A stretch of 58,998 nt of DNA, counting the filler. It is 7 parts of 7 records of this genome, joined end to end, with 100 filler letters (N's around TTAATTAATTAA, not from the genome) between each part and the next. Parts side by side here need not be neighbours in the genome. Positions count along the whole stretch, not along the records: positions 14,827 to 27,019 come from SRR31147125_35750; 6 more parts are not named here. The stretch is one strand, 5' to 3'. The position numbers and the translations under genes are program-made. Below, in pieces: positions 14,984 through 25,838 of the stretch (the first letter of the stretch is position 1; each line of letters opens with the position of its first letter). Under the pieces are notes generated by a model. The model was not told the origin of the DNA. It did not search any database and saw only the letters and a program-made list of their open reading frames with translations.

Positions 14984-17900
14984 CTATCGATGCCGGGTGC
15001 TTAAAGATGTTGGATTTGTGGTGGATTTCATGAGTGACGCCATCGAAGCGCTGAGGCGAAATAGTGCATCCTCCCTTTTGCAATGTGCCAGTAGCGCCTT
15101 GAAACAGTGATGTCTCTCCAACATGGTTTCATTATTAGGAATGGCTGAGAAAAAAGCCCGACTGCCGATAACAATTAACTTTTTCTTTGCCCGGGTCATT
15201 GCCACATTCAATCGGTTCGGACTATTCAGAAACTCACTCTGGATATGGTCCGGATCCGATGAAGTCAATCCAAACAAAATGACATCCCGTTCCCCACCCT
15301 GCATCCGCTCCACCGTATCAACCACCGGTAGATCCATCATCTCCATGTTCTCTTTTTTTCTGACCATTGGACCATCAACGCCGCCAACCGTTTCGTGATG
15401 GCATTATTCTGGGTTCTATGAGGGGAGATCAACGCAATCCGATCCGTAGAGACCTGATGATGTCCCATCAACTCGCAGGCAATTCCCGCCATCAGCGCCG
15501 CTTCCGCATCTGAGTGTTGGGCGCAGCATTCATGATCGGAAAGAATCAATATCACCGGTTTTGAAGGATCGAGAAGTGCGCTGTAACTGTGTGCCGGGCT
15601 CTCCGTTTCGATGGTCAGACGAGCATCGGCAATGGTGGGTGCCGGATGGAGCAGACCGTGATACCACATCCGGCTGGGAAACATACAAATTTCCCGGTTC
15701 ATTCGATAGGTGGTGTCCAGTGTCATCTGCCGGTTCCCAGGGGACTGTTCCATCAGAGTGGCCAGGATCGATTGATCCAGTGCGTCATGGCTCCCCCGGA
15801 CAATGGGCGGAAGCTGATGTACGTCGCCTAGAAACAGAAAATTGCCTTTCCCGTATATCAAAGTCAACAGCGCATGAGGGATAAGTATCTGGGACGCCTC
15901 ATCAAAGATCACCCAATCCAGCGCAGCAGGAAACTCACCGTTTTTACTGTTGAACATATTGTAAAATCCGAATCCCGTGGCTCCGATGATGCTCCAGGTG
16001 TGGGCCATCACCTCGTCTGAATCATCCGTATGGATGACATGAATGATGTGATCCTCTTCTTCGGCGCCGGATCTGGGCGCATGAGATTCGCGGGAAGAGA
16101 CGCGGTGATGGTCAGTGCCTTTTTGGGATCCGTCACTTTTTCCCCATTTGATGCAGGGGGCGGGAAATCGCTTTCCTGCCAAATTTGAAAAACGATGGGG
16201 AAGCTGTTGATTGATGAGATTGACCACTTTGTTCAGCACATTGTCAATGGCCTGATGGGTCAGGGCGGAGATGCCGATCCTCAAAGGTATTCCCCGTTCA
16301 AATGCGTGCATCACAAGGGCAATTAATATCCACCCCAACAGGTGGGTTTTACCGGTACCGGGCGGTCCCTGGATCATGGAAATAGGATGCTGAAACGGCA
16401 GCTTCAGAGCGGCTTCCTGGGCAGGGTTCAGCCCCGGATCGGCACGTTGGAGCCATTTCCTGATCCGGCTTTCCGATTCCCGATCCTGAAACGTCGGCGA
16501 AGCCGGATTCCCGGACAGCAGCTGATGCACCGGATGAAATAGCGACTCGGAGAAAAGATGCTCAGACACATGGGTCAGCTTTGCTTCGGTGAAATCCTCG
16601 GCATCTTCTTCCAACGAGTAGAAGAGCGCTTCATCGGGTTGGAGTCGGCCCGATCGGGAGATGAGAGTCAATGTCCCCTTCTCCATCTCATATTCCCCAA
16701 TGATGACCGATGCACCGCTTTGAATGTCACCCATACTCATATCCATACCTCGGGCATGGGGCACCAGCTTGAGAAAATCTCCCTTTCTGAATTTGGCCGG
16801 CAGTGTCTCATTCGTGGTGACGAAAATATATAGAAGGCGTCCCTGATCATCCATCCGAGTATTTTGGAACTGTAAATACCCCAAAGATCGAAATCGTTCC
16901 ATTCGCTCATGCAGCGGGCGTTCCTGTAGATCCAGGATATCTTCTTCCTGAAGGCGCCGCTCTTCCCGGATGAATTGTGTAAACGACGTATCGACTGGCG
17001 ATGGAGAGCATTCAGATTTCGATGCGCTTTTTTCCGGCCACTCTTTGATCCACTTACTTTCAAGAAGCGGATGGATCGTCTGAAACAGGGCTGCCATGGT
17101 GTTCAGGACGGTTTGCAAGTGGTGGATGTGATCCTCTGCCGTTGCGTCTTCCTCTTCAGGATGTTCCTGTCCCGTGTCACAAGAGGCATCATCAATGGGC
17201 TTGCGGCCACGGCAAAGGCCTTCGTCATGGAGCAGACTCTCCGGAGGATTGAGGCCGGGGTTACATCCGAAAAGATGAGCCAAAGAAAACAGACTGGGAA
17301 TACCGGGCAGGGGCATGTAGAAATGGGCCATGCAGATCCGGGAAAGATCGCTCCAAACTGAAGGCTGGGTTTGCCGTAAAAAAGGGATATCCGACTCATT
17401 TCCCCACTCCGATTCCCATTCCAGAATGTCCCGCCGCGTCCCGGCACCACAATGAAACAAATGGGGGCCTTTTCCCCGGTCAATTGTTCCGGACCAAATT
17501 TCGGTGATCTCTTTTGAGAATTGATCCCATATCCGGCGTTGCTCGATTCGAATCTGAATCGCGTTTCCATCGTCTTTTCCATTGGTGCGGATGTCATTGA
17601 TGATTCTGTTTGTTTCCGAATCCATGCTGTTCACGACTTCTGTTCGAGTCGCCAACACATTGAGTTGATCATCCATGACAAGCCAGCCGACGGCTTTAGG
17701 GTGTTTTGATAACGGATCCCGAATGAGATGGATAAAAACGGCAGTGGAAATGTTGGCCGGGAAAAGCCGGGTTCTTTTTTTATGAAGAAAGATTCGGTTG
17801 CTGTTAAATGCGTTGCAGAATCCCCAAAGGCGCTCTCTTTCCTGAGAAGATAGAGCCTGGATCAGGTTTCGATGATTTTGATTTTGGGGATCGGGGAATT

Positions 17901-25004: not shown

Positions 25005-25838
25005 TTATTTTTCAAAGGCAATGGTTGTCATCAATTTGGTCTCTCCATCACTGTCCAACAGCCAGAGAGATTTTCCGCGACCGCCGCTGATATCCAGTCG
25101 ATAGCCGTCGGAGGTTCCCCCGATGCCGGATTGATAGTATCGCCACAGATCTACGGAAAACTGATCCAGGGAATAGCCCTTGAATCGGGCCTTATCCATG
25201 TTCTGTAAAAAGGGTTTACTCTGAAGAGCCATCACATGGGCGATGTAAAACTCCGGAACCGGTACGCGTTCTCCCACTTTGCCGTTAATCATTTTGAGGT
25301 GATCTTTATAGCTGGCAAAGAGGGTGTCTATGAATTTCCGCGGGTCGTAGGGGCGGTCGTACAGCACTCTTTTATGTTGCTGAATGGCGGTGACAATCCG
25401 TCTCGGGTCGATGGATTTCAGCACTTTCTTGTTGATGGTGGTGGTGCGACCGGCAAAATCGAATTGGCCGTTGATTCCCTTGAGTACGGTGAATTTATCG
25501 GAATCGATGGTGATGGGAAGATCCGCCTCTTCACAAAGACGGGTCAGGTCCTCGATAAACTGGATGCGATATTGTTCCACTTTTTCTGCGGCATATTCAC
25601 GAAGGGTCTCCAATGTTGCAGCCGATCCTTGAAGTGCATCGTCTTCGGTAATGTCGGAGGCAATTTTCGATTTCAGCTGCTCATCCAATCCCAGAAAATC
25701 ATCCCGCCCGGCCAGACGCATGCAGAGTTTGATGAAGTCCGCTTTTTTCTGCTGCTGATTGAGTTCTCTCTGGAAGGGTTGAACGATCTCTTTGAGGGTA
25801 TCCTGGGCACTTTCGAGAAATGAGGATTGATCAGTCAT
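25005..25838 (-). CDS. Hypothetical protein, first gene of the ATPase-helicase operon
   Basis: 277-aa ORF with AAAGG RBS; helical N-terminus; no motif I can assign. Confidence 0.8.

Follow-up and report, generated by a model that had tools for sequence, protein, structure and literature searches.

The DNA considered here (the window) is a stretch of 58,998 nucleotides composed of at least seven contigs, which are joined by artificial N44-TTAATTAATTAA-N44 linkers; genes that face each other across a linker are not true neighbours. One of these contigs, SRR31147125_35750 (14827-27019, 12,193 bp), is occupied along nearly its whole length by four minus-strand genes, here called the cassette, which are the subject of this study. 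They code for a small protein (gene 1), for two paralogous ATPases (ATPase A and ATPase B), and for a giant helicase-nuclease. An earlier reading of the sequence (the initial annotation) had proposed them as a candidate anti-phage system. The coordinates of the open reading frames (ORFs) bear out the arrangement that it described, namely, four co-oriented genes in which ATPase B is separated from ATPase A by 16 bp and from the giant gene by 3 bp; the gap between gene 1 and ATPase A measures 165 bp. The statement that the contig ends about 157 bp downstream was also correct, as the contig edge lies 157 bp beyond the last stop codon and a linker begins there.

Integrity and layout of the cassette

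In the deposited sequence, three frame breaks interrupt the cassette, one in ATPase B and two in the giant gene, and each of them falls inside a homopolymer of the coding strand (Table 1). The initial annotation had counted them as three frameshifts and proposed their repair. A Logan contig from the public run X1 (12,196 bases, depth 102) spans 14900-25900 with no base differences and with exactly three one-base insertions, one in each of the A6, C6, and A7 homopolymers; the alignment is interrupted at 19397-19486, the serine-repeat stretch, which is reported as skipped repeats. Run X1 is possibly the source sample of the window, and for this reason the comparison is a correction of the assembly rather than evidence from another isolate. 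When the three bases are added in silico, open frames of 277, 435, 579, and 2,291 codons are obtained. The closest relative, a Desulfamplus metagenome-assembled genome (MAG) with 88-90% protein identity (locus L001), has frames of 277, 435, 560, and 2,291. Because the extra Logan bases restore frames that match those of L001, the breaks are assembly errors (homopolymer under-calls) and not real lesions, and the genes are intact in the organism. The three breaks in the deposited sequence would otherwise imply a decaying pseudogene cluster. This has a negligible probability: the breaks are single-base under-calls, absent from a depth-102 assembly that is otherwise identical over 11 kb, and the corrected frames match L001 and contain neither in-frame stops nor other lesions. 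Programmed frameshifting was also considered and is rejected on account of the extra homopolymer bases in the Logan contig.

The single predicted promoter of the initial annotation is recovered in part. A sigma-70-like match is indeed present upstream of gene 1, and it is weak evidence because the number of promoter-like sites in the region (13) is not above that of shuffled sequences (12.8 +/- 4.2). Terminator-like sites (24 versus 13.5 +/- 3.1 in shuffles) are scattered within genes. An Rfam scan of the contig matched no family. Upstream of gene 1, the neighbour annotated as ccdA corresponds to a divergent DsbD_TM/CcdA-type gene. The CcdA/thioredoxin pair in this position is common to the window and L001.

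Table 1: Position of the cassette genes, of the domains and sequence tracts within them, and of other features of the window.
Feature	Position	Strand	Remarks
Gene 1	25838-25005	-	277 aa; protein of no known family
ATPase A	24839-23532	-	435 aa; BrxD/SngB-type, PF10923
ATPase B	23515-21861	-	Paralogous BrxD-type ATPase; two frames in the window
Giant gene	21857-14984	-	Three frames in the window: 20442-21857, 15337-20688, 14984-15367
SF2 helicase core of giant	20715..21785	-	Motif I GSGKS 21690-21704; motif II DEIH 21387-21398; motif VI QRVGR 20835-20849
23-serine run, variable linker of giant	19405..19473	-	Codon run
QQQLQQQQ tract, variable linker of giant	17926-17949	-
PD-(D/E)xK nuclease of giant, Cas4/RecB type (putative)	18163..19029	-	Motifs QCNRRFC, GVPDL, VGDIK, KWQVAFY, CTTCDWFAPCY
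SF1B helicase of giant	14984..16701	-	Walker A GPPGTGKT 16345-16368; DEASQ 15889-15903; Pfam AAA_11/AAA_12
A6 run	22332-22337	-	One A short; splits ATPase B into two frames
C6 run	20711-20716	-	One base short; frame change between SF2 core and rest of giant gene
A7 run	15353-15359	-	One A short; puts C-terminal part of SF1B helicase in third frame
Best sigma-70-like promoter match	25918-25891	-	TTGACA-16-TACTAT; 53 nt upstream of gene 1 ATG
DsbD_TM/CcdA-type gene	26290-26988	+	Divergent neighbour upstream of gene 1
Linker closing the cassette contig	14727..14826	.	N44-TTAATTAATTAA-N44; DNA beyond is not contiguous with the cassette
Linkers	5898-5997, 14727-14826, 27020-27119, 34482-34581, 39976-40075, 45092-45191		N44-TTAATTAATTAA-N44

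The encoded proteins

The two ATPases belong to the family PF10923 (BrxC_BrxD), which ATPase A matches at 5.8e-60 and ATPase B at 6.5e-23 in Pfam. This family is described as an ORC/Cdc6-like AAA+ ATPase (PMC12839542). Among the PADLOC models, BrxD gives the best match (1.4e-44) and SngB the next (1.7e-35). The NCBIfam equivalog model of BrxD (NF033438) assigns 149.4 bits to ATPase A and 70.6 bits to ATPase B, and its cut-off of 350 is not reached. ATPase A has the Walker A motif GDYGDGKTH and the Walker B motif DEME (DE.E across relatives), and ATPase B has GAYGQGKSH and LFDEAE. Both motifs are kept in both proteins, as judged from about 20 relatives of each (21 sequences for ATPase A). In L001, the gene of ATPase B is intact and codes for 560 aa. 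The ratios of nonsynonymous to synonymous substitution rates (dN/dS) against L001 are 0.050 for ATPase A and 0.043 for gene 1, values that are approximate because dS exceeds 1.

The giant protein is read here as a chain of 2,291 residues in which an Lhr-like helicase is joined to a nuclease-helicase resembling Dna2. Its domain order and the conservation of its motifs were derived from an alignment of 22 intact giants. The chain starts with an Lhr-like helicase of superfamily 2 (SF2), which is followed by a conserved, putatively Lhr-type accessory region and by variable linkers rich in Ser and Gln; then come a putative Cas4/RecB-type nuclease with four cysteines, an alpha/beta domain, a beta-barrel, and a Upf1/Dna2-type helicase of superfamily 1B (SF1B). 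Helicase and nuclease motifs are conserved in the 22 proteins, those of the nuclease being invariant or nearly so, and the alpha/beta domain contains no invariant acidic residues. A single uninterrupted ORF of 1,888-2,291 codons is found in 30 related loci. The longest proteins are those of the nine-row clade to which the window belongs together with seven MAGs of Desulfamplus and an unclassified one of Desulfobacterales (2,085-2,291 aa versus about 1,900-2,000 elsewhere).

The N-terminal helicase is best matched in PADLOC by BrxHI (7e-70) and then by SngC (2e-58), the latter match being limited to the first 400 aa or so. Together with the PF10923, BrxD, and SngB matches, these results agree with the initial annotation, which had compared the DUF2791 ATPases and the Lhr-like helicase with those of Shango and of the BrxD-BrxHI pair. 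The NCBIfam Lhr-type models give 1.2e-50 and 2.7e-46, yet these scores are far under their own cut-offs. Lhr itself is the closest solved relative of the SF2 core (5V9X 8.6e-37 and 7LHL 8e-36, with the homologous part of the L064 giant as query). In the accessory region, only a weak match to residues 517-607 of SngC was found (8.2e-3).

The C-terminal 1,162 residues were examined separately. In a profile search of the PDB, DNA2 ranks first (5.1e-44) and UPF1 next (4.6e-36). The AlphaFold2 (AF2) model of this part has a predicted local distance difference test (pLDDT) score of 82.0; Foldseek places Dna2 (5EAN) at the top over its whole length (1.2e-31), but with a root-mean-square deviation (rmsd) above 30. 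VIA-align gives IGHMBP2 a Z of 26.8 (rmsd 3.7, 536 aligned), Upf1 a Z of 24.7, and Dna2 a Z of 21.7 (rmsd 4.7, 556 aligned). The Upf1-like SF1B helicase is preceded by a beta-barrel, as found in both the PDB profile search and VIA-align. The aligned region is made up of model residues 534/542-1162, i.e., mainly the barrel and the helicase, and for this reason a Dna2 fold match is not established for the nuclease. The consensus of the nuclease in the 22 giants is C...D...(D/E)xK...QxxxY...CxxCx5C. This pattern would be that of an iron-sulfur-cluster nuclease, an assignment that is drawn from the motifs and from weak database matches (PADLOC Cas4 3.7e-4, TIGR03491 1.2e-4) rather than from a domain-level fold match. 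With the putative nuclease and the AAA_11/AAA_12 SF1 helicase, the helicase carrying its own nuclease and a second helicase, which the initial annotation had described, is recovered.

The protein of gene 1 matches no family at E <= 0.01 in Pfam, PADLOC, or NCBIfam, and in this the unassigned 277-aa first gene of the initial annotation remains unassigned. TerB/SngA was not matched at the same threshold (Pfam, PADLOC) either by gene 1 or by 56 distant relatives, in agreement with the claim that a TerB-like gene is missing. In the AF2 model (pLDDT 86.8), the protein begins with a long helical hairpin, and its C-terminal half is of alpha/beta type. With this model, Foldseek found no match in the PDB at E <= 0.001, and a wide VIA fold search gave helical-hairpin matches only (Z <= 8.4) and no clear fold match; a PDB profile search with gene 1 returned nothing under E 0.25. 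Its relatives in the ESM Atlas are unnamed clusters only. Across the wider family, the sole conserved polar feature is an R-x-F-D-P motif, and since no other polar residue is conserved, the product is probably a non-enzymatic adaptor or sensor, as far as sequence comparison can tell. A relationship to the nucleoid protein YejK was considered on the basis of a weak NA37 match in one distant relative (3.9e-4, below the cut-off). It was dropped after hhalign gave a 3% probability for the gene 1 family profile against Escherichia coli YejK.

Distribution, neighbourhoods, and exchange of effectors

In GTDB, 112 stretches encode a relative of gene 1, and the best 80 loci were analysed. A word-indexed search found 297 relatives at E <= 0.001; identity is 55-88% among the 120 relatives listed. 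An exhaustive profile search places the family in 340 clusters at 50% identity. The initial annotation had suggested looking for the same four-gene order in other genomes, and this order recurs in most of the best 80 loci, which belong to Thermodesulfobacteriota and Latescibacterota. ATPase A comes after gene 1 in 77 of the 80, the remaining three being cut by contig ends. The pair of ATPase genes seen in the window is shared by 57 of the 80 loci and recurs in distant cassettes. The position of the giant gene was counted over 50 loci with at least 4.3 kb past gene 1: it stands right after ATPase B in 35, beyond an insert of 1.2-7.5 kb in four, and outside the fetched DNA in nine, while two are unclear. 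In a Desulfotignum MAG, a 1,926-codon ORF was observed about 4 kb upstream of gene 1 (L022:37-5817, +).

Of 201 genomes sampled evenly from the order of Desulfamplus magnetovallimortis, 15 yielded gene 1 (one of them by a 22-residue match); at the level of the phylum, a broad gene 1 profile detected it in 21 of 401 genomes. The giant is present in 14 of the 201 genomes (profile search, E <= 1e-60). Both genes occur in 13 of these, gene 1 alone in one, the giant alone in one, and neither in 186; in both exceptional genomes, the match lies on a contig that is short or cut. For this co-occurrence, a Fisher test gives p = 2e-18, a value that overstates independence because the genomes are related. 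The cassette is common in cable bacteria and in magnetotactic Desulfamplus. In a FastTree phylogeny of gene 1 and ATPase A (73 rows), three copies from Latescibacterota stand beside Syntrophobacteraceae. From the spread counts and the tree, it follows that the cassette is accessory at a large scale, stable in some genera, and occasionally transferred. A copy on a contig labelled as Promethearchaeota archaeon (L061) is near-identical to that of a Thermodesulfobacteriota MAG (L060; branches 0.011 and 0.013) and is most likely a binning error rather than an archaeal copy.

The surroundings of the cassette vary, and in most cases they consist of housekeeping genes. Synteny is limited to close relatives (the window with L001, L006 with L007), and flanks differ between genera and even within the genus Desulfobacter (L013 versus L016). 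Toxin-antitoxin genes, integrases, and insertion sequence (IS) elements lie near several copies. For a survey of the flanks, the 10 kb upstream of 16 diverse loci (135 ORFs) were searched with Pfam, and toxin-antitoxin-type or defence-type families were found in six (L004, L016, L025, L042, L059, and L069). PADLOC was applied to 53 of the 135 ORFs (those with no Pfam match or with a toxin-antitoxin, ATPase, helicase, nuclease, or integrase match) and to 21 ORFs from other loci; its matches in the flanks were PDC-M38A and PDC-M38B in L042 and PD-Lambda-2 and PDC-S01 in L059. Genes of the same kind are also nested inside the cassette. In a Candidatus Electrothrix MAG (L047), an island at 10218-17421, between ATPase B and the giant gene, contains BrnT, MNT/HEPN, a type II methyltransferase (MTase_II 3e-120), an NsnA/GmrSD-like gene, and a RelA/SpoT-domain gene; in L069, a MazF-type gene occupies the same interval.

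Gene 1 and the two ATPase genes (the trio) can also be separated from the giant gene. The genome of Electrothrix sp. YB6 has its trio at about 2.84 Mb, and its giant gene is found at 0.69 Mb, between DDE and IS200 transposases. In the Eth-SRB1 genome (that of L049), two giant copies (L094:9122-17793 and L095:658-9292) are located away from the trio, and each overlaps or abuts a preceding gene for an 833-aa Pif1-HRDC-HTH_40 helicase. They sit among ParDE, PIN, Phd, and integrase genes, IS200, and a Fic protein (PDC-S24, 3e-178). The Eth-SRB1 giant may be a re-partnered effector.

The matches to BrxD and BrxHI raise the question of whether the cassette is an accessory arm or remnant of a bacteriophage exclusion (BREX) system of type 2 or type 6. 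These two models are the top-scoring ones for the cassette proteins, and the contig stops 157 bp downstream, so that core genes could lie past its end. The genomic context is against it. PglZ, PglX, and BrxC are all missing from the 12.2-kb contig in the Pfam and PADLOC scans, as the initial annotation had noted. PglZ (PF08665) was not found in three of five carrier genomes, which include the closest relative (G001) and one complete Electrothrix genome, and is located far from the cassette in the other two. In long loci, the genes on both sides are unrelated, and the CcdA/thioredoxin pair upstream is the same as in L001, which has no BREX genes nearby. ATPase A itself stays at 149 bits against the 350-bit cut-off for BrxD equivalogs. 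Judged from the contig and from relatives, an origin as a BREX remnant is therefore very improbable, and the earlier proposal of a stand-alone module outside BREX holds.

A broad gene 1 profile (mean identity of the alignment, 26%) revealed a wider family of 15 distant gene-1-like loci, of which six have ATPases adjoining, seven are stand-alone, one has another context, and one lies on a contig that is too short. A search of 401 genomes with a single distant gene-1-like protein as query gave 0 matches, which is uninformative. Outside the set of 15, a distant gene-1-like protein in L086 precedes two PF10923 ATPases and a helicase, and the same genome also has a close copy of the cassette. Plasmid pDESTI.01 of Desulfomonile tiedjei carries a gene-1-like gene, two PF10923 ATPases, and a 701-aa helicase, with AbiEi/AbiEii nearby. 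Within the set, the trio is accompanied by an Lhr-like helicase of about 680 aa in L097 and L099, whereas L107 has the trio only. A different combination occurs in three loci (L108:2054-8101, L109:2087-7696, and L110:755-6672), where a gene-1-like gene, a short and a full BrxD-type ATPase, and a protein of 185-188 aa are associated with a ZorD-like SNF2-Mrr nuclease (ZorD model match 1e-72). This variant cassette appears to be likewise unnamed. Since the same trio is found with an Lhr-like helicase, with a ZorD-like nuclease, and with the giant, it is a module found in combination with more than one kind of helicase or nuclease effector.

The stand-alone gene-1-like sub-family (L098 and L100-L105, e.g., L101:2012-2851) consists of proteins of 273-287 aa with no ATPase or helicase gene near. 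Its genes always come just after OMPdecase/HUMPS-type and SIS-type genes. On the other side, five of the seven loci have PanE and phosphoribosyltransferase genes, and L100 and L103 have different ones (in L103, those of dehydroquinase, EF-P, and PTPS). The genomes concerned are small ones of the phylum, and this metabolic context is conserved among them. The existence of a sub-family without ATPases means that the fold of gene 1 is not tied to defence.

The other contigs of the window carry housekeeping genes, including those of trigger factor, ClpP, Ffh, TrmD, and EF-G. In the ORF at 32373-33653 (+, 426 codons), the match to ribosomal protein L19 is confined to the first 113 residues; another homopolymer or stop-codon error of the assembly may be present there.

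Proposed function and relation to known systems

The cassette, whose genes are intact, is interpreted here, with moderate confidence, as belonging to an unnamed family of systems against invaders (phages or plasmids) that would work on the same principle as Shango and BrxD-BrxHI. A role in defence is suggested by the patchy spread, the variable location, the swapping of effectors, the plasmid copy, the nested defence genes, and the best hidden Markov model (HMM) matches, which are to defence helicases and ATPases. Sequence analysis shows the intact genes, the conservation of all motor and nuclease motifs, the co-occurrence of trio and giant, and the exchange of effectors in related cassettes. 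The following scheme is a proposal. The two BrxD-type AAA+ ATPases would form a hetero-oligomer with the gene 1 protein as a non-enzymatic adaptor or sensor. This complex would recognize some feature of invading or damaged DNA and would then load or switch on the giant protein as the effector. Lhr moves 3'-to-5' and SF1B helicases move 5'-to-3', and if these family properties are kept, the two motors of the giant would have opposite polarity and could run in the same direction along the two strands of one duplex. The putative iron-sulfur nuclease of Cas4/RecB type that lies between them would cut the unwound DNA, and the protein would thus be a single-chain analogue of RecBCD/AddAB. The binding, the loading, the polarity of the motors, the target, and the protection as such are the parts of this scheme that we infer.

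Several observations weigh against a role in defence. No toxin-antitoxin or defence-type family was found in 10 of the 16 upstream flanks (among them that of L007, which has an ORF with a phage-integrase domain), and clear PADLOC systems are present in only two. In Electrothrix sp. YB6, the trio and the giant gene are about 2.1 Mb apart and both are retained, which is more usual for housekeeping partners. Seven of the 15 distant gene-1-like genes stand alone between sugar-phosphate (hexulose-phosphate-type) and pantoate-type genes. Gene 1 is 50-88% identical across orders and phyla, an identity that is unusually high for a defence system; it persists within genera, being found in nine of 14 genomes of the genus, and the tree of gene 1 and ATPase A mostly follows genera. 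A search of 2.9 million viral contigs gave 360 pattern matches and zero true relatives. Finally, relatives of Lhr and Dna2 are repair enzymes in other organisms. The initial annotation had proposed to look for enrichment near known defence genes and had regarded vertical conservation with no link to defence islands as contrary to its proposal. The ten flanks without such families, the persistence within genera, and the survival of unlinked halves in cable bacteria touch on this point.

The main rival is a lineage-restricted machine for DNA repair or replication rescue, in which the ATPase pair and gene 1 would load the helicase-nuclease on the cell's own broken ends, stalled forks, or flaps for end resection. 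It would account for the closest solved relatives (Lhr 5V9X and DNA2, the latter also at the top of the Foldseek ranking), for the strong purifying selection and the high identity across phyla, for the persistence within genera and a tree largely in line with taxonomy, for the flanks without defence-type families, and for the retention of both halves in strain YB6. This alternative is considered unlikely. Carriers are few in both the order and the phylum, the flanks vary within the genus Desulfobacter, and one copy lies on a plasmid beside AbiE. Furthermore, the same trio is paired with a ZorD-like SNF2-Mrr nuclease of restriction type, defence and toxin-antitoxin genes are nested inside L047, and the best HMM matches are models of defence systems.

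A more specific version of the anti-invader reading can be put forward only tentatively. In it, the trio would be a portable licensing module akin to a replicative helicase loader, which senses foreign DNA and hands it to interchangeable effectors, namely, a plain Lhr-like helicase, a ZorD-like SNF2-Mrr protein, or the giant. The giant would then be a hitherto unrecognized RecBCD-like DNA shredder, a single chain in which an iron-sulfur nuclease accompanies two motors, the SF2 one running 3'-5' and the SF1B one 5'-3'. If this is true, Shango, BrxD-BrxHI, and the cassette are three branches of one immune principle, an AAA+ loader plus an Lhr-type helicase. How Shango and the BrxD-BrxHI arm of BREX type 2 confer protection is not known, and the cassette shares their ATPase-helicase core. 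Because the chemistry of its effector can be read from the sequence, the cassette could make the shared principle testable, i.e., what the AAA+ ATPases sense and how the helicase is loaded. The family is also large (340 gene 1 clusters) and absent from the searched Pfam, NCBIfam, and PADLOC v2 collections. A single-chain bipolar helicase-nuclease would be of interest to DNA enzymologists even if its role turned out to be in repair.

No complete system of PADLOC-DB v2 matches the cassette, which answers the concern of the initial annotation that an already modelled system might fit, and no description of it was found in the open-access papers of PubMed Central and the bioRxiv preprints. Several known systems and enzymes are related to it in part. 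The organization of RecBCD/AddAB provides an analogy in working principle; homology is asserted for the common nuclease and SF1 folds only. Like these complexes, the giant would combine two motors of presumably opposite polarity with a RecB/Cas4-type nuclease, in one polypeptide. It differs from them in that one motor is an Lhr-like SF2 and not an SF1A helicase, in its single chain, and in its link to an AAA+ pair. With Dna2 (mouse, 5EAN/5EAW/5EAX), the giant shares the succession of a PD-(D/E)xK nuclease (putative in the giant) with a cysteine cluster, a beta-barrel, and a Upf1-like SF1B helicase. Identity is only about 16%, however; the giant has an extra alpha/beta domain between nuclease and barrel, places the whole module behind an Lhr-like helicase, and is ranked by VIA-align closer to IGHMBP2 and Upf1 than to Dna2. 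The ZorD protein of Zorya (SNF2 helicase and Mrr-like nuclease) resembles the partner of the trio in L108-L110 and not any protein of the window cassette, and ZorA, ZorB, and ZorC were not seen beside the ZorD-like gene of these loci.

The BrxD-BrxHI dyad of BREX type 2 (Pgl) consists, like the core of the cassette, of a tightly linked ATPase and helicase, and BrxD and BrxHI are the best models for the cassette proteins. BrxD has been proposed to load or activate the BrxHI helicase (PMC12839542). Conversely, the cassette is without PglW, PglX, PglZ, and BrxC and adds to the dyad a further ATPase, gene 1, and, in fusion, a nuclease and a second helicase; its ATPase A remains under the BrxD cut-off. 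Shango is composed of the TerB-domain protein SngA, the ATPase SngB, and the helicase SngC and has been reported as protective in Pseudomonas aeruginosa and E. coli (10.1101/2022.11.11.516204, 10.1101/2022.05.11.491447). A Cell 2024 paper treats SngC, BrxHI, DruE, and DpdJ as one SF2 clade that is possibly specific to immune functions (PMC12278908). Shango and the cassette are both operons that begin with a small gene and continue with an ATPase of the DUF2791/PF10923 family and a DEAD/DEAH helicase resembling Lhr, and both are separate from BREX. In contrast to Shango, gene 1 of the cassette lacks the TerB domain and belongs to no known family, and two paralogous ATPases take the place of the single one in the three-gene Shango operon. 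Furthermore, SngC has about 700 aa, whereas the helicase of the cassette is roughly three times longer and is fused to a nuclease and an SF1B helicase, and the models of BrxD and BrxHI outscore those of SngB and SngC on the cassette proteins. Relative to the core of Shango and BREX type 2, what is new in the cassette is the first component, the duplicated ATPase, and the fused effector.

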